A stretch of 56,838 bases of DNA, the filler included, from Sphacelaria rigidula (Eukaryota), in assembly GCA_964200075.2 (NCBI GenBank). It is 7 parts of 7 records of this genome, joined end to end, with 100 filler letters (N's around TTAATTAATTAA, not from the genome) between each part and the next. Parts side by side here need not be neighbours in the genome. Positions count along the whole stretch, not along the records: positions 8,135 to 16,168 come from CAXNAA020012556.1; positions 16,269 to 24,302 come from CAXNAA020012557.1; 5 more parts are not named here. The stretch is one strand, 5' to 3'. The notes under the pieces are model-generated. The model made no database searches, had not been told where the DNA came from, and saw only the letters and a list, made by a program, of their open reading frames with translations. Below, in pieces: positions 1,567 to 41,488 of this stretch (positions are counted from its first letter, which is position 1; each line of letters opens with the position of its first letter). The position numbers were made by a program, and so were the translations under genes.

Positions 1567-4389
1567 GTTTGGGGCTTCAGAGGTAGCTTGTTTCATTTAA
1601 GCTGTAGGGCTTTCTCTCTCGCTCGGCCGCTGTTTGCGCACCAGCCAAACACAAGCCCACGTTTTTTTTTCCCAGTCTGAATATTTTGGTTTTTCGTTGT
1701 TGATTTTGACTCGGACATTTTGCACACGAGGTCGGCGTGTACACACCACATATCGGGTGTCTGGCTTTGTTTTTCAAAGACAGCTGTCTCTCTTTTTACT
1801 TGCAGTTTGACAGGCGTTACGATCCTGGTCTGACAGCAGGCCACAGATGGCTCACGACGTGCCTAGTGCCGTCTCAGACAGTGACGAACGCACCATCAGG
1901 CGCTTGAGGCGTGCGCGCATTCGCGACCTCTCCTTTTCTGCACAACCCACCCCCCCCCATCCACACGACATCGACAGAGTGCACATCAACATGCCGTGAG
2001 GAATGCGCTCTGTTTTGTACCGTTGTAGACGTGCGAAGAGAACAGCATGCCGTCACGCAAATTCAATCTGTACAATCGTTCCCTGTTTCATCCGCAAACG
2101 TGTCTCTGAAAATACAGCCGCTCAGTTTTGTTTTGTTTCAGCACGGCCGTTCTGGACACGCCACTACATTTTCCCCTTCGCTCCAACTCCCCCGTTCATT
2201 TCTCGTCGGTCCTGTACTCACTGACCCGACCGATGGGTGTGTAACTACCGATCTTTACTGGCAGACATGGTCTACACGGGCTGTTTCGAATTCACCCCGC
2301 TGTACAGACGGGGAATTTCTTTCTTCGAAGACTGAGCGTGGCACCCAACTGCTCGTTACGTACACCTTTGTTACACCCATGTCACACATGGTTCAGTACG
2401 ATGAATTTTTGTCTGTACACCCGCCTGATTTGACCACAACCAACGTGGGAGGTTCACAACCGCAGAGGAGCTCTTATATTTCCCCGATACCCACGAATGC
2501 ACAACATAGCCATCAGTTTCAGACAACATTTCCGCATACATGTACAACACCCAGATCCCTGACCAACCTCTTGATTTCCACCCTACCTATACCCAGGTAC
2601 GCATACCATGTCTGATGTCGGACGCACGCCGGGAACACCTGCCCAAGGTACACTCGTAGACGGTGCCCCCTCCTCGGACAACGGTATTACCAGGTCTGGT
2701 AGTGTCGATAGCAACGGTCAGGAACTAGGCGTGGACGATTTCTTTTACCACGGTCATGCTTTCGTCGATGCAGCTGTCGACGTAAATACGGGAACCAATC
2801 TCCCTTTGGCCCCCACACTTCGATCACTGAAAACAATGACACGCCACTCCAGTCAGCTGCTGCAGGCGGTGACGCGAATTCTTCAATAATAGACACCGCT
2901 TCCCCCCCGTAGGTCTTGACCCGGATATTGTCGTTATGCCCTCGACAGTAGACCAGGTAAACTCGAGCGCCACCGCAACGCGCCCTCCGAAAAAAGTGAG
3001 GGACAAAGCGAAAACACAGTGTCACCGCTCACGCCCAGATGCCATATCCCCTCATAGGTGGGAACAGTGGGCGGCTGCTGAAACAAGCCGATCACTGGGA
3101 TCACATGTTTATCCAGGCCAACCAGGCCAAAGCGGAGCGCCCTAGGCGCGAAGATGTTGAGCGTGACCAACTTCTAGCACGGACGCGACGTGATGTCGAC
3201 ACTCAACGACAGGCTCTTGCTCTGCAACAGAGCAAGCAGGGTAAGGTACTCCGCCAATCAGCAAAAGCTCTGCGCACTGCGCAGCTACAGTTAGAGCAAG
3301 CGCAACGTACTCATAAACTACATGCGAGTCATCCTACGATAGGGGGGGGGGTATTTGGTTGCCCGAAAAATGAGGCTCATAGGTGTGTCAGACATCCTTC
3401 CACACTTGCGTTGCGCTTAGTTTTGGTTCCAAACGGTGTGAGGTAGTATGGATGAGCGTTATTGATCCACGACAAGCTCGTTCGAACAACTGTTGCTGCT
3501 TTCAACGACGATCTGCCTCGAAATTTCGAGCAACAAAGGGCCCAAAATACCCCCCCCCCCCTATCGTAGGATGACTCATGCCGAACAATCCACTGCACGC
3601 CTATCAGTGTTACAGTCAGGGTTGGACGAACCACTTCGACGTCTTCGCTAACTGACTGTTGACCCCCCTGGGACCATGGATGGACCTCAAATTTCATCCA
3701 TGACTGCCGAGAGGTCCACACCAGTACGAGCGGAATCACCACGCTCTCTCCCTACAGGACTCCCCCCCCCACACACAACAGGTCTTTTCGGCGGCACCGA
3801 AACAAAACCGCTCAGTCACCACATTTCAGATCTCAGGTAGCCCTGTGCAACCCCCTCCCCCTTCCAACCCCCCCCCACTCAACAACCGAGTCCCACACGC
3901 TAACCCGCCGTACGCGATGGCGGCAATGGGCACGGCTCACGAAAAAGCAGCAACTGAGCCACTACGGCTACAAGAACCTGGTAAGTCTGCATGGGACTTG
4001 TCCGGTGTGCAAAACTTGGCGACTACCGCCCTGTCGTACTTCGTCGACGAACCCGCTAAGCTAGTACGTTATACATGTCAAGCACACCACCTCGCAGATC
4101 CAATCAAAGAGAAGGCCAAAGACCTCCTTCTGTGGTTCCCCAATAACCGCAGTACAGTTACACTCGCGGGGGTTGTTACATGTGTCCAGTCCCAACCCCA
4201 CCCCGACTACACGACGAAAAAGATCCAACACGAATATGTTGAGCCCCTCATCACCATGTTCCGCGACGTTGAAGAAATACGGAAAACGGTATACTCGTAC
4301 TCACAACAACCCACGCACCACGTCGATAACTCGTATGATGATTGGGATCGGGGTTTTAGGGGAACATTGTACGAGAGCAGCTCGACACA

Positions 4390-5559: not shown

Positions 5560-6719
5560 TCTTTTTTCACGCCGATTGGGCCCGCGAACAGCAAGCTGAA
5601 CCTGCTTGTAGAGCAGCTATACATTATCTATCCGAAGGATGCCCCTCCCCCTTTCCGGAAACTGAGTTCCTTTTGCCAGTAGGGCCCCACCGAGCCCCCA
5701 CGCAGGATGAAGTTACTGAATTATCGCGTAAGGGCATGCTTCATACGGATGATGATGGCGTTGTTCTTTTAGTTCACCGGCCCCCCACGAACCCTCCTGG
5801 AGGGAAATCTACAAGTAGTCACGCCCGTTTGTTGGGTGATGCCCCCGTACGTATTTATGTTCCGATGCTCCTGCGTCCATGGGTTCTCCATGAATGCCAC
5901 TCACAAGCATCCACACATCTGGGCGTCGCTAGGACTTCCCAAATGCTTCAGCGTTTGTTTTGGTGGATTTGTATGGATCAATGTGTGCGTTGGTGGTTTC
6001 GGCGGTGTCTTCTTTGCCAAGCACGCAAAACTTCGCGTTAAACAGTTAGATGGCCGGCAATCTCTATGCCCCTTCCCAATGGGCCTGGTGAAATAGTTTC
6101 ATGGGACTACTTTGACCCCCTGCCCCTCACTGATAGTGGTAACAGGTACATTTTGTTGTTTACGGATCGGTTCAGTCGACATGCTGTGATGAACGCTGTT
6201 TCGGAGGCCAACTATAGTGCAGAAGGGACTGCCAACGTCTTTGTGTACACATACATCCCTCAGTGGGGTGTCCCCAAACGTTTGTTATCCGATAACGGCC
6301 CACATTTTGCCGGCAAACTTTCTGCTGTGATCAGTAATCTCCTGGGTTTCCATCGTATTTTTACTAGTTCACACCATCCGTCCACAAACGGTGGGACCGA
6401 ACGAGTTAATCACACGATGGCGCAAATGCTTGCCACAGTGACCAATGAGCGACAAACGGACTGGGACCTGCGCTTACCCCTTGTCCAAATGAAGTACAAC
6501 AACTCCGTCAATGCCGCCACAGGCTTGGCTCCCAATGAAGTTTATATTGGTCGTATGCCCAGGTTGCCATTGACAGTGTTCGATAGGAAACCCCCTGGTG
6601 GTCATCAGAGTTTGGATCGGTACATTGTGGAGTATCATATGCCTGTTAGTAATCGTCTTCGTCTTGCATTTGAGGTAGCACGGGAGCAGAACTTGATCAA
6701 CGCAGCAAAGGTAGCTTAG
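5560..6719 (+). pseudogene. Gypsy integrase (HHCC zinc finger plus rve core), disrupted
   Basis: HECH...HLG...CLLC, then WDYFDPLP...FTDRFSR, LLSDNGPHF, HPSTNGGTERVN. There is an in-frame stop at 6039-6041. Confidence 0.92.
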
Positions 6720-8034: not shown

Positions 8035-8134
8035 NNNNNNNNNNNNNNNNNNNNNNNNNNNNNNNNNNNNNNNNNNNNTTAATTAATTAANNNNNNNNNN
8101 NNNNNNNNNNNNNNNNNNNNNNNNNNNNNNNNNN
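8035..8134. other. Artificial 100-nt contig spacer (N44-TTAATTAATTAA-N44)
   Basis: Identical spacers occur at 16169, 24303, 32437, 40571 and 48705. Confidence 0.99.
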
Positions 8135-9242: not shown

Positions 9243-9499
9243 TAGCAATGCTACGGTAGGGGTGCACTTTTTCCGCGAAATTGTGTCTGGTTCAGGGGCT
9301 CCTAACGATTCTAGATGCACCAAAATATGGGTCAGGGCATCCCCATTTGCATATTCATTCGGGATATCCCCGGCACATTGGAGTAGTAATCCCGGCGTAC
9401 TTTCACATATTTTCATAGGTCGTATTTCGCATTAGATAAAGGGCTCCTAACAATTCTAACCTCAGAAAATATTTGTGCACCCCTACCGTAGCATCACTC
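9243..9499. mobile_element. MITE sharing TIRs with the 16834-21364 element
   Basis: Left end tagcaatgctacggtaggggtgcac; right end gtgcacccctaccgtagcatcactc. Flanks are aaag/gaag. Confidence 0.85.
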
Positions 9500-16007: not shown

Positions 16008-16999
16008 TCCCGTTGTCTGAACCAAGAGGACGAGAGCAGCAAAGAATATTTGGCGCATATCGACGCGATGCAGGAGTGCTCATCCAATCCACGATGAGGT
16101 ACCAAAATGTCAGGCATGTACCAGGGGGTGTACTCATGATCATGCATGCCATAGTCATGAGACCATCGNNNNNNNNNNNNNNNNNNNNNNNNNNNNNNNN
16201 NNNNNNNNNNNNTTAATTAATTAANNNNNNNNNNNNNNNNNNNNNNNNNNNNNNNNNNNNNNNNNNNNAATGGGGGGGGGGCTTCATTTCTTCTTCTTCT
16301 TGTAGCGGTTAGGGCGTTCTCGTGAAGAAATGGTCTATACCAAAGTAGAACGCCCGGAGCCAGTGAAGCAGATTGGAAAACAGCAACCTGGCCCACTTAT
16401 TTTCGGCAGTTATGACTCAGAGAGCGTCGACACAACATTTCAATACACGAACACCAAACACGGGCCGGTGAGTGGCCTGCGAAGTATTGCTCCGAATTCG
16501 TACAGACAGACCCGGTTTTGTGAATGGTGGAGAAACGCATGACAACCGCCAGAAATATATGTATTTCCTGTCAATCACTGTTCACGTACAGCTCGTCAGG
16601 TCTACTGCGCTATTATTGTTATAGTTGGCGACCATCAAATAATCCCGATCCATCAACCAAGATTTGGACAAATGATCAAAACATTGAACCAACACGAACA
16701 AGAGATTTGAAGCTACGGTGTACAATCCATTTGTTGCGAAACGCGCGAGCAATCATGTATGTTTAGATGTGACAAGTTGGGCAAGCCTCCATGAAGAAAT
16801 GACGCGATGGCTCGGTGGTCACGCTGACGGAAAGAGTCGTGCTACGATAGGGTTTCACTTTTTCGGCTAAAATGTTCACCTAGTAGCCAAAATCGAGGTT
16901 GCAGGCGAGGAGGATGAGCTCGTTTGGGGAGGTCCGCTTGCAAGGCGATGGGCTCCCGGTAGGCACGACTAGTGATTCGTTGGCATTTCTGGAGAGCTT

Positions 17000-19750
17000 T
17001 ACCCTGGGTGAAGGTCATGATGTCCGTTTTTGTGGGATTTTACGTGTATCATTCAAGCGGTGATCCTACTCCACGCACCACAAACTCCTTGACACGCATC
17101 CTACTTCACACACCGAACTTCGAATCGGCATCAGCACCGCGGAGACTCGCCGACGTCGACTACCTGGTTTTGACCTTGTAATATTCCACGTATCCTTCTT
17201 CTACTATCCACTCGACCTCCGCAGCGAAAAGAAGGCTCGATTCCCCCCCGCAATGCAGTTTGCATCTGTGACGTCTCGACTTGCGGTCTGTTTGAACCGA
17301 AGTGACACTGGCTCTAAACGCTTTCTTGATCCTCCATAGTTTCGCACCCTGGGACGAATATGGTCCCGTGAACGTTTTTCGACTTTTGTTTCGATGCTGA
17401 AAAGCTTGGGACATACTGTGCACCGGCGGATATCCTCCTTGAAAAGCAGTTCTGCTTCAAAGTCGCTGAAGGCGGATAAGGAGTTTGTCGAGAGAAGGAC
17501 AACATTCGAGTGTGCATTCGCGACTACGTCATCTCGTAATTTGAAATGATTGCTCTCCCCGCCCTGCATTGCTGTCGGCGGTAACCCCATTCGGAACCAC
17601 GTAATGAACATACTCCATTTCTGCGGCTCGCTCAAAATCAACCATCCACAGAATCGTGTCTCCGTTGAGGAACATGCCGTCGTGTGAGTTGTCAGACGAA
17701 CTCCACGGGCTCGGCGCTTTCCGGGCTATCAGCACTGGCACTATATCCTGACCGCGTTGTTACGCGGGGTCGACTCGAATAAGAGCAGTATACCCACAGG
17801 GCAGGCGTTCCGGAAGATGGTCGGACAGCTAACATTCCCTAGCGCTGACTTCCTCATCGTAGTTTCCGCCGACCTCTCTTCTGCTGTATTCGGATGGTCC
17901 GGACATGATCCTGCGGCGGATGGGAGGATACCACTCTGGGTGCCGGTCGAGGCACATTTCGCAGCTGTATGAGAATCCGCGCAGATGTGGGGGGTGAAAG
18001 AGGCAGGTGTTAGGGTGTATCCGGAGACGTTGCCATCGATAAAAATCCCGGAAGCGAAGGTATATCCATTTATCGGAAAAGCTTGGCAAATTCGTCTGTT
18101 GTTGGGGGAACTCACAAGCAAGATAGCTGGTAGACGGCGATGATGTCTGGTGTGCCCGTTGCTGCTACCCTGCCAATAGCTTGGCATCCTGAGACTTTGA
18201 TCTCCTTTGGTACCGACCGGGCCGCCTGGCGCACAGCAGGTGTCACGTCTTCTTCACCAACAAACAGGAACTATCTTCCGAGAAGGTTGTTCGCCTGCTT
18301 CGTGAGTAGGAAAGTCTTCTGCTGCGGTGTGCTTCGCCCCTCGCCGATTCACGTCTGTTAAGAAGCAGAGTAGGTGGAGTCCACCTGTAAAAGTCTTTCC
18401 TCGTTCATCGATGCCTGGCTTGGGAAATACTACACATGACATTAGCTGCACAACTGGGTCCGCTGGGGATCTGCTACGTGTATGACGGGCAGGAGATCGA
18501 CGATTAGAACGAGACTCACATATGAAAACGTTCACTAGAGCGCGATGTCATCGCCTGCCCATTGCGGGAGGTGTTAGCGTCCCGCAGTCACGGATGGGGT
18601 AGAGAATATGTTTTCCCGAGTCTATTATGAACAACGATGCGATCGTCTATATTGTCGAGCAATTGCCATGGTTACGCCTGTGTGGCACATGTTGTCTGAC
18701 CGCCTCTTCCATCTCTGTCATGATGTCGTCGTAGAAGTTCACCTTCGTGTCCATCAAGTACCGAACAGGCATACGAGAGCATAGCTCGGGTTTAACGCAC
18801 ACCAGCGGGTGGTCTCCGTCTGAGCGTTTGTGGTTGCCGGGTGAATAGTCGTGCTTCCATTTCACCTCATACGGAGACGGCTGGGTGTGAAATGTGACCC
18901 GTTCTTCAATCCAGGCCAGTGCGTTGGGACACGTGACCTCCAGTCGATCTGATCGCGGCTTCCTGTCGGGCACGCTGAAAGACGGCAGCATGGCATAGGT
19001 GGATGCCGGATACGCGAGGGGGGTGGATACGCATCATACTCTATTTTCATACACACGGGATGCTCGGCAGCCGACGCATCATCGCGACTGAGCGTTGATG
19101 AAAGTATTCCGTCTTCAGATTGGTGGATGTTGTAATGGGTGTGTCTATCCATGGCACTTGTGGGGAGGAATACTGTTGGTGTACGCATCATCGATATCCA
19201 CCTCAGTCGTCGTGACTCACATGCGGTGCGGCTCTCCGTTTTCCATGGCGTCCTCTCGCCTCCTCTTCGCGCCATAAAACGCTTCTCGGCTCAGGAGTCC
19301 TCCAATGAACTCTTTGGCGTCTGCATCTGTTGTGGATTCCCCGCACATAGCGCCTAAAACGGACCTGCGGATTTTCCTCCCTCAGAGGCGACGATATCTG
19401 GCTCTGACAGTTGCGCCCAAAGTTCACGAATGTTGTCGCATATCGCGCCATCACCGTTCCTCATCGTTCTGTCACTTGCCAGGTTGGGATCAATCAGGTT
19501 CACAAACCGAGGGTGTTTCTGGAGGAGAGACCTGGTGAGCTCCCTGATTTCGTCCCATGTCGTCTCTATATTCAGCCACTTCTGCTCTTCATCTGACTCC
19601 ACAGCGTTGAGAAATACGTCTGCGGCTTTGTACAGTGAGTTTTTGAGGTTCCATGCTGACGTCCTTCCCATTGCTTGAGGTCGGTCTCGCCCCACAGTCC
19701 TGGGTGATATCAAATACGTGCTGAGGTGTGACATCCTTTAGCTTTACCAC
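17000..19750 (-). pseudogene. Fragmented transposase-like coding sequence
   Basis: The pieces RKPRSDRL...WIEERVTFHTQPSP...PVRYLMDTKVNFYDD, VFPKP...LHLLCF and FLFVGEEDV...IKVSGCQAIGRVAATGTPDIIAVYQLSCL occur in the order of Sola2-type N- and C-terminal blocks. No DDD core was seen. Boundaries are approximate. Confidence 0.55.
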
Positions 19751-19829
19751 AGTTCGGCCATGCGAACATATGTTTCAGCACGCCATACGTTGTCGGCGCC
19801 TCATCTCTTATTCGAATTCGGAATGTCCT

Positions 19830-21030
19830 TGCCTCGCCGTCGACTGGCGCTGGCTAGCCTCATATACGAAGGAGATTCCCTTCGAGGTCTTTGTATTTTG
19901 ATATCCGTTGCGTGCCTTGGAGAAGGCGATCAAAAGATGTCGGCTTATGTCTCCGTAGGGCAAGGTGATTTATCTATAGGTTAGGTTGTGTTGGCGTGTA
20001 CCGTAGCAACAACGCATATCCTATTAGGGGGCGGCCTCTGACTCGATCAAAGATTGCCACGTCTGGATCTCCTTCGTGTACGACGCTCTCATGAGGCCCA
20101 TCTAAAAATATAAATACTATGCTTGCTGCTTTGCCGGCGATTGGCGACGGCGAGCCTCATATATGAAGGAGACTCCCTTCGAGGCTGTTCTATTTTGATA
20201 CCCGTTGCGTGCCTTGCAGAATGCGATGAAAATATGTGGGCGTGGGCCTATCTCTTCATAGGGCAAGATGATTCATCGATAGAACAGGCAACGTTGTTAT
20301 TTACCGTAGCAACACAACGCGTATCCTACTCGGGGGCGGCCCCTGACTTCATCAAAGATTGTCAAGTTTGGGTCTCCTTCATGTATGAGGCTCTCACGAG
20401 GCCCATCCAAGAATATATATATTATGCTTGCTACTTCGCCGGCGATTGACGACGGCGAGCCTCATATGCGAAGGAGATTCCCTTCAAGTTTTTGGTACTT
20501 TGTTATCCGTTGCGTGGCTTATTTATGCGATGAACAGAAGTGGGCCTATACCTCCATATGGCGAGATGACTCATGATTCATCGATAGATTAGGTCATGTC
20601 GGCATGTACCGTAGCAACAACTCATATCCTATTCGGGGGTGGTCTCTGACTTCATCAGAGATTGCCGAGTTTGGGTTTCCTTCGTGTATGAGGCTCTCGT
20701 GAGGCCCGTCTTACAACATTAATATTATGCTTGCTTCGTCGGCGACTGGTGATGGCGAGCCTCATATACGAAGGAGATTCCCGTCAACGTCTGTGTATTT
20801 TTATATCCGTTGTGTGCCTTGTAGGGCGCGATGAAACGATGTGGGCCTATCCCTCCATAGGACAAGATGATTCGTGAATTGATTTTGTTATTATGTTGTT
20901 GGCATGTACCGTGGCACCACACTGCATATCCTATTCGGGGGCGGCCTCTGACTTGATCACAAATTGCCGAGTTTGGGTCTCCTTCGTGTATGAGGCTCTG
21001 ATGGGGCCCGTCGAAGCATAAAAGTATTAT
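19830..21030 (+). repeat. Four diverged ~300-bp tandem repeats
   Basis: The anchor gcctcatat...gaaggagattccc recurs at 19857, 20154, 20459 and 20759 (spacing 297, 305, 300). Confidence 0.95.
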
Positions 21031-22500
21031 GCCAGATGTTTCTGTACTGCTATACCTAAAATGCCATGGTAGACATTCGCGTCTCATTTCATGTTGCGAT
21101 TCATTCATGTGTTGCTCTTCGTTACAATTCTCTGGGGTTACGAGTCCATCCCTGGCGTTTCGAAACCGTGCTCTACGGAGGGTAGTATTCCCCCTCGGGT
21201 GGATGAGGTGAATCGGCATCATTTCCATTGTTTTTCAAAAATAGCTGATGCCAGGTCACATAATGGCCCCTGTGTGCAGACACTAGGTTCGTTGAATACC
21301 GGTCCCGAAAGAATTGACGCCGCATTCTCGGAACTATTACCGCACCCCTACCATGGCATCACTTAACGTGTGGTCTCCCCCCTTGGCAGGGTCTCCTAAT
21401 CGGTTGTCACGTCTGTATCTGCCGGGGACTTCGGACAATTCTTTAATGCGGTCGTCCTGGGTTATGGACATGTGCAGGGGTGTTAGGTGCCTGGCTGAGA
21501 TAGCCGCGTAGGGAACGAGAAGAAACAGCGCATTCAACGCGGAGGCGTGGCGCTTGCTAAATGGTGCATGTCATGCCACTTCCGGCTTGTACGAGCTTGG
21601 CCAGCCTCGAAACGGATATAAGCTCTCAAAGCAATATCTCAACGACACAGACGAGTTGGGCCGTGATCCGCATATCGTATTAATTTCTAATCAAGGGGAA
21701 GGTACCCATCTGCTCAAAATTCTGGGCCGATTTTTTTCGTTGATTAAACCCCATGTCTAGTAATTCCTATACCTAGCGGAGAGAGCGTCCACACTAAAAT
21801 TTATATGAAACCCCGAACGATAGATTACGCGGATGATGACAATATTTTATGCGAACCGTCCCTGGAGGACGGGGAGACGATATATACCCTCACTTTCACC
21901 TAATTCGTAATCTATCTCGAGATATGGCGCACATAATGTTTCATACTAAAATCAGTATATTACGAGCAGAGGCACTAGATTACTTCAATCTGGATATCGC
22001 GTCTCAGTTTTTGAGAGTTATGCTATGAAATTATGTATGGAGAACCGCTAGTATGTAATAAAATAAAAAACACAGCATTTTCGTTTTTTATCGTTTTTTT
22101 CCCCATATGTTTTCGTCTCTTCTAGGAGAGTTTTGAGGGGAAATGAACATTGCTCTTGGGCCTTATCTCGAATTTTCAACTCAATTTTGAAAACTTTAAT
22201 TTGAAACTTGGCACGGAGAACGACGGAGGTATGCTGAGTGAAAAAAATGGGCCTTTTTTTTTTTTTCACGAGAGGTTCGGGCGTTCTTGCAAAAAAATGG
22301 TCGTTATCATACAAAACGCCCTCAATCGGTGAAAAAACAAAATCACACATTTTTCTTGGTCCATCATGACCTAGCGAGGTCCCACACAAAGTTTCAACTC
22401 ACGAGTACCAAACGTGGACCGATAAACGGCCTGCAAAATACTCTTCCAAATTTCCGCCAACCCGGTTTTTCGAAGGTACACACGCATTTGTTTTCTTGGA

Positions 22501-22741
22501 GACACTTTCTACGATAGCCCCCCCCCCAAAACCAGCTAAAAGTGTCACGGAACAAATGGCCATACAGCGCCTGATGTTCGGGTTCAGGCTGCATGAAGCG
22601 CCTCATAATTGGCTAGAACCAACCCAAGCGTGGGAATTCCCAACTTCTCGTTGTGCTCGGCTTTTCCCATTTCGATTTACGTCAAGATTTTGCCTCCCGA
22701 AACCGTGCACTTTTTGGGGGGGGGCTATCGTAGAAAGTGTC
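22501..22741. mobile_element. MITE with GAC...GTC termini and TGGA 4-bp TSD
   Basis: Left end gacactttctacgatagcccccc; right end ggggggctatcgtagaaagtgtc. A sister copy lies at 28882. Confidence 0.92.
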
Positions 22742-22744
22742 TGG

Positions 22745-22962
22745 AGTTGGACAGTGAAATTTGGTATGGACAATCAACATGGTATGAAGAAACGCTGTCT
22801 GTGAGGTCCTGAAGTTTTTTTCATTGTATTTCATGAGTGAAGGGCAATATTTTGTAAAATGACCTTCACTCATGAAAGAAGTTGAAAAAACTTCGGGACC
22901 TCACAGACAGCTTTTCTTCATGCCATGTTGATTGTCCATACCAAATTTCACTTTCCAACTCC
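22745..22962. repeat. Long inverted repeat inside a repeated non-autonomous element (~22036-23025; related copy ~31597-32300)
   Basis: agttggacagtgaaatttggtatggacaatcaacatgg pairs with ccatgttgattgtccataccaaatttcactttccaact. A comparable hairpin lies at ~32040-32305. Confidence 0.8.
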
Positions 22963-24562
22963 TAGAAGAAAAATGCGAATTCGCCTGCAAAGTACAAATC
23001 CGCTTTGTAGGCTGGCCCAGCCTGTATGTATGGTGCGCACTACTGTCTCACCACTTCGTTTTTCTTTTCACGTCACAAAGTTTAGTGACGCATTAGTTTT
23101 TGCCCCATACATATATGCTCTTGTGCCCGATTTCGTGCTCAAATTGCTGGCGCTAGGCAGCTGGAATTTACCGTGATTTCGGAGAGATGTGGAGCCGAAT
23201 GGCGTAATTTCCTTGCCTCCGGCGGCGTCCCCTCACCAGCCGGGGGGGGGCGTTTACGCGACTCCGCCGCGTTGCCTCACCAGGTAACGCCGGCGGAGTC
23301 GCGGGGTGGCTTCGCCGCCAGTTATTTAGTTTTTAGTGGAAACTGTAACTGGTTGTAATTTTAATTTTCTGAAACCACTTCACCCTTAGACCCCGATGCG
23401 GGTTGTCCATCTGGATCACGCATACTTTGTTCAAGAGAAAAAATGATGCCGATTCAGCAGGTGACCTACCCTCGCCGTCCAAGGCTTAACTGATTAGCCA
23501 AACCAGTTCATAACTCTACTAGATATGGGCCGGTTAATGAGCCTGCAAATACAAATTCGCTTCTCGGCTGGCCCAGCTCGTACCTCTTGGGGGTGACAAG
23601 CAATGTGACGTCAAAAAACCTTCGACCGCAAAGTGTGTCGACACTTGAGCAGGCATCATGTTCCGAGAATTCGGATGAATGCCATTGGAATTTCCGGCCA
23701 TGCTTACTTCAAAAGTGGCAAAATGATTTGTGATTTTCGATGCCGGTCATGCTATCCCTACACCCGCAGCATAGCATATCCTGTACTTCGTGATCGATAA
23801 CCTTAGACTCACGTGTGCTGTCATACCGGAGCAGTCGCAGGGGGATCAACGGCATCTACTCCCAACAGTGCTGTGCTTCCAGATAAGAAACTACGGACTA
23901 CGAACCGGTTATGATCGAGTGCATATACAGGAGCGCCAAACCGCATTGAACGCGACGTGATGTGAGAAATGTTGTATCTTGATTCCGTAACGGCAAGAGT
24001 AGGCCATCTGTTGAATCGGCATCAATGTCACTTGAAAAAGGTTTATTTCATCCAGACAGACTACCCTCGCGATCTACACTCGGGAGCAAGAACGACATCT
24101 ATCTATGACTTCATCACTTCTCTGCACGAGAGACAAGATGTGTTGGCGTACGTCATCCTTGTGACACGAAAAGGATCAACTGCTTGTTCATTCACGCCTT
24201 GTCGCCTATCGATGTTGCTGTTACTGTACAGTACCGGCCCGCTAGTAAGAAACTGAAAATTCGGCCTGAGGCTGGGTTTCTTATTTCCTGGGAGCATGAG
24301 CANNNNNNNNNNNNNNNNNNNNNNNNNNNNNNNNNNNNNNNNNNNNTTAATTAATTAANNNNNNNNNNNNNNNNNNNNNNNNNNNNNNNNNNNNNNNNNN
24401 NNCCCGACGCTAACCCTAACCCTAATCCTAACCATAGGGATATTCAAATTCCGATGCGGTCCTCTAAGCACGCGGTCCTCTCACGCATTACACGCGCCAT
24501 ACGGAGTGACGAATAAAAATCACACCAACTAAGTAAACTCGATTAATCAACAGCGCACGCGC

Positions 24563-30752: not shown

Positions 30753-31028
30753 CAGCAATGCTACGGTAGGGGTTGCAATTTTTCAGCGAAAACGTTTCTC
30801 GGGGCTGCTCGGTGTGTTGGACAGGTTATTTCGTGAATCGGCATCATTTTTACTTAAAAAAGACTGAAAATGATGCCGATTCACGAAAAGGACCCTGCGT
30901 GCAAACACCATGTTTCCAGGAGCCCGGTCCCCGGAATTTTTGGGCTGCACGGTAAGCCCCATTTATATGGGCTCCTACAAAAAAAAGGCCCAGAAACAAA
31001 ACGTGCAACCCCTACAGTGGCATTGCTC
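30753..31028. mobile_element. MITE sharing TIRs with the 16834-21364 element
   Basis: Left end cagcaatgctacggtaggggttgca; right end tgcaacccctacagtggcattgctc. Internal palindrome tgaatcggcatcatttt...aaaatgatgccgattca. Confidence 0.85.
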
Positions 31029-41349: not shown

Positions 41350-41488
41350 CTCTTCGTGAACCGGCATCATTTTCAGTCTTTCTAAAGTAAAAATGATGCC
41401 GATTCACGAAGTGACCCGTCCAACACCCCGAGCAGCCCCGAGAAACCTCCTTGCCCAAAAAGTGTAACCTCTACCGTAGCATCACGTC
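41350..41488. mobile_element. One-ended fragment of the same MITE family as 30753
   Basis: Reverse complement of ~30753-30890, ending acctctaccgtagcatcac. Confidence 0.8.

Follow-up and report, generated by a model that had tools for sequence, protein, structure and literature searches.

DDE/D elements are moved by transposases that bind their terminal inverted repeats (TIRs) and excise them, and deleted copies can be mobilised in trans. Sola2 termini reportedly begin with 5'-GRG, an observation said to go back to Bao and colleagues in 2009, and Sola3 elements have a TTAA target and long TIRs. Published work describes Sola2-1_Ec32 of Ectocarpus as a 4606-bp element with a 26-bp TIR, a 4-bp target-site duplication (TSD) and GGCGG termini, alongside Ectocarpus giants, namely Sola1-1_Ec32 (21.5 kb), KDZ and EnSpm, with accessory genes, fixed nested insertions and dead transposases (PMC12477816). 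The Sola2 elements DFa-1/2/3 and PPa-1/4/5 carry Fanzor (PMC3627910), and Sola cores are without Pfam match (PMC5751038). Here, we consider a 56,838-nucleotide stretch of the brown alga Sphacelaria rigidula (assembly GCA_964200075.2; 'the window' is this whole stretch), in which a sequence-only reading had placed, at 16834-21364, a 4.5-kb Sola2-like transposon with a deleted core that would be the parent of MITEs (miniature inverted-repeat transposable elements) on other contigs. The analysis reported below indicates that the window very probably contains, in a non-autonomous copy, the left-hand ~7.5 kb of a large (at least ~14 kb) brown-algal Sola2 transposon.

The window consists of seven 8034-bp contigs joined by spacers of 44 N, 12 bp and 44 N (8035-8134 and five more), so that the three short elements (9243-9499, 30753-31028 and ~41488) lie on contigs other than that of the transposon (C12557; 16269-24302 of the window). 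Contigs on either side of a spacer are mutually unrelated and stand in size-sorted order. Within the assembly (244 Mb, 27,214 contigs), copies of the same family in other contigs are called siblings, and the labels L, C and P denote loci, contigs and proteins. An exact-TIR-pattern search of the genome gave 50 matches, all of which were inspected and among which there is a second type of end. One contig matches, at 99%, a protein that carries the label Sphacelaria rigidula at NCBI.

Ends, transposase gene and accessory gene

The base at 16834 is a genuine transposon end, the equivalent of which opens 14 copies with distinct flanks. The 30-bp TIR of sibling left ends is identical to the family's right end (30/30), and that of the window copy matches it at 29/30 positions. 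The flank is satellite DNA of which seven uninterrupted units exist elsewhere, so that the empty site is known; its continuation was seen again as loose ends at 16833 in contigs of runs X1 and X4, and the four flank bases at 16830-16833 (GAAA) are the expected TSD. The second type of end, which agrees with the left TIR at every one of its first 30 bases, occurs with ten distinct flanks, and the family has inserted repeatedly at unrelated sites. L114 connects this right TIR to the transposase-side tail of L013, and a composite length of at least ~14 kb is obtained by adding non-overlapping pieces of L013/L045, L114 and L093. The true right end of the window copy lies off C12557. The anticipated GRG-type termini were found, left ends beginning with GAG (13/14) or GGG (1/14) and right ends with GAG (8/10), a rule that is not universal since Sola2-1_Ec32 begins with GGC.

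The broken minus-strand open reading frames (ORFs) previously noticed are present and belong to a transposase, since in tblastn they match residues 169-230, 242-332, 810-889 and 887-1181 of the Ectocarpus protein P0002 (1192 aa). Five named homologues come from Pylaiella, Ectocarpus and Hapterophycus. The window copy retains residues 169-332 and 810-1181 of P0002 and is without 333-809, that is, the Cys-rich block and the entire core (D602/D691/D742). The catalytic segment was indeed deleted close to the proposed site (near 18360), the exact junction being 18378-18425, where siblings L013 and L014 have 2913 and 3009 bp, respectively. Among the loci compared, only the window and L015 have the 48-nt filler at the junction; the window shares it with C8631, which implies that the core-deleted form has moved at least once. 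Three deletion classes are shared by 2, 7 and 2 copies, the 7-copy class having a 6-bp microhomology, and copies diverge by 3.5-5.1% from their own consensus; the window copy also lacks 74 bp at 17573 that are present in L013 and L015 (blastn). A genome search with the core gave 45 matches in several families. In a more distant Sola2 family (~44% core identity; L047, L048, L051, L052, L054, L055 and L057), one TIR-bearing insertion, flanked alike throughout, is fixed in the transposase gene of seven copies.

The Sola2 call is upheld by the motifs of the core. DFQE-x-QDEVQSQHW, SDD, (S/T)DNC-x-KQFK and HYFG-x-HGK-x-SD occur in L014, L046 and P0001-P0005 and, compared by eye, match the published Sola2 alignment (PMC3627910, Additional file 10). 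The TIRs are short (30 bp, left identical to right), unlike those of Sola3, and TTAA was found in 0/13 TSDs. Residues 586-739 of the P0002 model match RNase H-like integrases and transposases, best a retroviral intasome (Z 8.7, rmsd 2.9, 93 aligned residues) and, with Z 7.2, Mos1, which is supportive, if not strong, evidence for an RNase H-like fold in the predicted core. A core-alignment search confined to 2372 proteins of 2087-5000 aa found none and is uninformative.

The right arm encodes a second protein, oriented away from the transposase. The transposase and exon 1 of this accessory gene stand head-to-head, ~3 kb apart, on single contigs in L025 and, in another family, L112; a third family is represented by L166, which overlaps that family's transposase contig. 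The last accessory exon is present in 11/13 loci, 10 of these 11 having an inward-reading GAG-type TIR 0.64-0.86 kb away; five of these ten owe their discovery to the TIR itself and hence are not independent, while the other five were found through the gene and represent three further families. The accessory gene thereby adjoins a GAG-type TIR in four families. Near the gene in L161 there is a complete MITE only. Accessory copies were also seen in L158 and L159 without link to a transposon end, and the homologue in L158 (C24619, 444-2124), which has two exons that are open and an identity of 99-100% to P0043, could be a young or domesticated copy. Values of dN/dS of 0.13-0.23 in four between-family pairs (five others were not computable, silent sites being near saturation) and of 0.42 in the single within-family pair point to purifying selection on the accessory gene; selection on both genes counts among the points demonstrated. 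A HMMER library search gave 33 accessory relatives, the named ones (3/10 clusters) being brown-algal, with CAM9349019.1 and CAM9476765.1 as homologues from Ectocarpus, and a word-index search of an accessory piece against longer proteins gave 0/4171 candidates. Pfam scans of the accessory pieces and 17 homologues gave no match above cut-off, and none to a TnpB/Fanzor nuclease. A model limited to the central ~440 aa (pLDDT 80, pTM 0.79) is almost entirely helical; its best match among 48,161 chains has Z 5.5 and Foldseek gave none at E<=0.001 in PDB/BFVD, an absence that does not prove a new fold. The best score of the protein in the atlas (0.79) is uninformative.

Proposed history and competing explanations

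The element is best understood as running from a 30-bp TIR through an intron-containing DDD transposase gene that reads towards it, a ~300-bp tandem array, a nested MITE and a spacer to an oppositely oriented second gene and another 30-bp TIR. A transposase supplied in trans would have mobilised full elements, deletion derivatives and MITEs by binding their GAG-type TIRs, with 4-bp duplications as the result. The core would have been lost in gap repair following excision, as the filler here and the microhomology in another class may suggest, and the core-deleted form would then have undergone at least one further move. Quite possibly, the accessory protein is a selected helper, in which case a DNA- or chromatin-binding anti-silencing factor or a transposition cofactor would be its most likely putative role; the rest of the probability goes to a host gene that was captured or a cargo selected for some other role. 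The array, which comprises 3.0-5.9 units in six siblings and bears a TIR-core-like word on the minus strand of its units, might, on weak grounds, be a binding site or promoter. A stable two-gene Sola2 clade, in which the transposase is paired with a divergent, selected partner whose ~400-aa unmatched helical domain acts as cofactor or against silencing, possibly via the TIR-like words of the array, is a bolder and rather unlikely extension.

A number of points weigh against a giant Sola2 element. Its ~14-kb length is pieced together from different copies, and its TSD has not been directly seen because no contig spans both ends; left and right flanks give a matching TSD in 1/140 pairs, which is chance level. 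The window's own subfamily is not bridged to the accessory gene or the right end, since extension ended at contig ends. Assignment to Sola2 relies on by-eye motif comparison with a published alignment, and Pfam scans of the transposase pieces and full homologues gave nothing above cut-off. The AlphaFold model of P0002 is poor overall (mean pLDDT 43) and the Z of 8.7 middling, while the sole named atlas neighbour of the transposase is DUF7869 (0.93), for which the Pfam scan of P0002 gave no confirmation. Finally, no intact transposase gene was found.

If 16834-21364 were a complete 4.5-kb element with an eroded TSD, and the direct parent of the window MITEs, one would expect TIR-like words at both coordinates, and these do exist, as they do in the three short elements (9243-9499, 30753-31028 and ~41488), with 8 matches in the window at <=3 mismatches vs 0.11 expected. 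Also in common is a palindrome; the tgaatcggcatcattt motif near 21210 recurs, as claimed, at 30833 and 41356. However, the word at 21346-21364 starts with AAG, not GAG, and identical sequence continues past it in 8/8 siblings that have it, with alignments extending to 21464-21594 and, in L015, to the contig end at 24292. The satellite continuation of the empty site was not found after 21364 or anywhere on C12557, and the MITEs share only the TIR. Since 21364 is not the right end, the proposed element is merely the left part of a longer transposon, and the reading as a complete 4.5-kb unit is refuted. The supposedly lost TSD (gaaa vs aacg) had been read at an internal site, where it would be missing because 21364 is the arm of a MITE fixed inside the family. 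This arm is evident, 21208-21366 aligning over 159 bp, at 70% identity, with an arm of a free MITE (307 bp, C17404) that has its own 4-bp TSD, and 21056-21364 as a whole is read as a decayed MITE of the 30753 type, from which the sharing of the tgaatcggcatcattt motif probably comes. A different history, in which an ancestral Sola2 of ~7.5 kb terminated on the right at 21364, gave rise to 30753-type MITE arms and only afterwards gained, by capture, its right arm along with a new TIR while the former end decayed, would account for the strong alignment of the 21208-21364 arm (z 12.6-15.9 across 8 copies) beside a weak putative left arm (z 0.9-2.8; 2.2 or less without the TIR), for a nested MITE in which no empty site or TSD was observed, and for the resemblance of the 30753 left end to that of the family (31/37). 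It is nonetheless improbable, as a TIR-like word at 21056-21072, 309 bp upstream of 21364, fits the 307-bp length of the free MITE, and the 152 bp between TIR and palindrome recur in the free MITE and in 6/8 transposon copies. Moreover, MITEs fixed within other Sola2 families are common here, and the accessory gene is head-to-head in three families whose transposases saturate at silent sites, so that the long layout predates this family. A CTC-GAAA at 21606-21612 was also considered as a right end and rejected, as it lies inside the nested element X (Table 1) and siblings read through it.

The strongest competitor, a possibility to be taken seriously if not the expected one, accepts all of this for the rest of the family and gives the window's subfamily a different right arm, without the accessory gene. 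The subfamily diverges from L013/L025/L114 at 21594, where the TA-flanked element is nested; past this point the sequence of the window, C8631, C2165 and C19911 is absent from the accessory-bearing contigs, no accessory N-terminal match was found in the window or L043, and extension from C19911 ended at contig ends (4 matches). Against such a replacement, the left TIR is the same and the transposase ~90% identical, just one type of right end bearing the identical 30-bp TIR came to light, and the divergent stretch is largely a nested high-copy repeat. At the far end of the window subfamily, L043 (5960-6463) has a 168-aa stop-free frame with 0 Pfam matches, possibly a captured fragment.

Short elements and other features

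The coordinates of all features are collected in Table 1. Of the short elements in the loci compared, 19 are two-ended and have their GAG...CTC termini intact, and the 4-bp TSD predicted for MITEs with this TIR was found in 13/19 (shuffled mean 0.68, maximum 6), against none of 3 or 6 bp and one of 5 bp. Four of the six cases lacking it are pairings across nested elements, and the duplications are not AT-rich. The similarity of MITEs to the family's true ends stops by position 42-44 (left) and 25-34 (right); because those of the window share only the TIR and beyond it align with neither true end, this element is not shown to be their parent. The idea of mobilisation in trans fares better, in that the TIR and the 4-bp TSDs make transposases of this clade the likely movers. 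The 9243 MITE is closer to the end of another Sola2 family (43/46) than to that of the window family (30/36), and neither it nor the 30753 copy has a perfect TSD. A 'left end' in L020, tried as autonomous parent of the 30753 MITE, was rejected, being itself a 281-bp MITE with TSD. A fourth GAG...CTC MITE (252 bp, 3326-3577) has a perfect ATGC TSD. The MITE at 22501-22741, which has the TIR core in common and is at high depth in run contigs, is a terminal variant of the same system.

Table 1. Positions of the features of the transposon, its flank and the related short elements in the window
Feature	Coordinates	Strand	Basis or remark
MITE, only TIR in common; left end nearer other Sola2 family	9243..9499	.	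flanks AAAG/GAAG
Host flank, one ~930-bp tandem satellite unit	16270..16833	+	7 unbroken units on C18857 and C25283 span insertion site
True left TIR, 30 bp, begins GAG, at 3' end of transposase gene	16834..16863	+	14 flanks and TIR identity
C-terminal transposase part (P0002 aa 810-1181), frameshifted	17172..18357	-	tblastn, blastn
Deletion junction, ~2.9 kb replaced by 48-nt filler	18378..18425	.	sibling comparison; junction same in C8631
Transposase exon, P0002 aa 242-332 (RKPRSDRL...HTQPSP...PVRYL)	18701..18973	-	58% identity to P0002
Transposase N-terminal exon, aa ~75-240 of P0003	19220..19740	-	frameshifted in window, open in 8-copy consensus
Four tandem ~300-bp non-coding units upstream of transposase	19830..21032	.	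Tandem Repeats Finder, period ~300, 77% matches
Putative decayed nested MITE, palindrome-bearing (30753-type) family, ~309 bp; right end is the 21364 word	21056..21364	.	arm similarity, spacing
Internal transposon spacer, common to siblings	21365..21591	.	sibling alignments
Nested TA-flanked high-copy element X	21592..23024	.	inverted ends beside TA; one subfamily only
MITE private to window copy	22501..22741	.	GAC...GTC ends, TGGA 4-bp TSD; absent from L015, L017, L024, L029
Further internal sequence common to siblings, up to contig end	23027..24292	.	L015, C19911, C2165 alignments
Palindrome-bearing MITE, family of 281-bp L020 MITE (214/270); TSD not preserved	30753..31028	.	
One arm of 30753-family MITE	41350..41488	.	

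L015 is 94% identical to the window over 22742-24292, and the similarity of C19911 and C2165 extends to 24234. Element X is probably of Tc1/mariner type; in L122 (C24704, 2213-3441) it sits in a TA within the left TIR of a sibling, which it splits. The ~930-bp satellite unit (L169-L173; C18857, C25283) includes part of element X and hence seems to be made from a transposon-derived unit. The satellite contig C18857 (L169, 1-60) begins one base beyond the insertion site of the window copy and may, though this is unproven, be its right flank. The ~300-bp units were considered as a protein repeat and rejected, their consensus having stops in all six frames. A second tandem repeat, of ~370 bp, lies between the two genes (L045 1553-2260; L156 1664-2668; L118 ~6035-6214), and in L156 and L118 a ~21-bp word is shared with the ~300-bp units. 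Inversions were noted in L023 (C12143, 5416-5995; a left end, beyond the tandem array) and L113 (C22188, 2728-3847; part of the accessory gene). An Rfam scan of 16500-24302 gave six weak matches, 0 at gathering score. Pieces of the element are covered by contigs from two possibly-RNA runs, a coverage that says nothing on transcription.

Comparison with described elements

A core-deleted TIR element accompanied by MITEs is ordinary in itself, and the immediate lesson is one for annotation: a nested MITE can mimic a terminus and halve the apparent length of a transposon. A second point is the accessory family, which is conserved, has no known domain, is linked in four families to the end of a transposon and is brown-algal only as far as its named homologues go. 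If it is true that the accessory aids transposition or counters silencing, it would offer a new handle on transposon persistence in brown algae. In the literature searched, which covered subscription papers and Repbase Reports incompletely, no giant Sola2 paired with a conserved accessory other than Fanzor was described.

With the Sola2 group (Sola2-1_HM and others; PMC3627910) the brown-algal element has in common the motifs DF.E..Q..VQS.HW, SD..H/QD, SD...QY/FK and HGK..D, the Cys-rich block that precedes the core, TIRs that are short and, on MITEs with its TIR, a 4-bp TSD. It differs in its longer, intron-containing transposase (~1190 aa) with a ~370-aa C-terminal extension, in having DN instead of DG where the second aspartate lies, as PPa-1 does, and in a length of at least ~14 kb. 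The TSDs of the MITEs are not AT-rich, in contrast to those of amoebozoan Sola2 elements. Compared by description, Sola2-1_Ec32 is likewise a brown-algal Sola2, with a 4-bp TSD as on the MITEs here, but is shorter, with no accessory noted. Fanzor-carrying Sola2 elements share a second gene and, in some families, a largely deleted transposase, but have variable 3' cargo, whereas the present families retain one and the same accessory and the pieces scanned have no TnpB/Fanzor match. The Ectocarpus giants, which belong to other superfamilies or groups, resemble the present element in exceeding 10 kb and in their fixed nested transposons, pseudogenised transposase moved in trans and extra gene on the opposite strand. 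The Sola1-1 accessory is a ParB and DNA-methyltransferase protein, whereas the one described here has an all-helical domain, and the parts that were tested gave neither a Pfam nor a fold match. The pattern of a giant DNA transposon with an accessory gene, described for Sola1, KDZ and EnSpm of Ectocarpus, would thus be extended to Sola2, the present element being a modest variant of that pattern.

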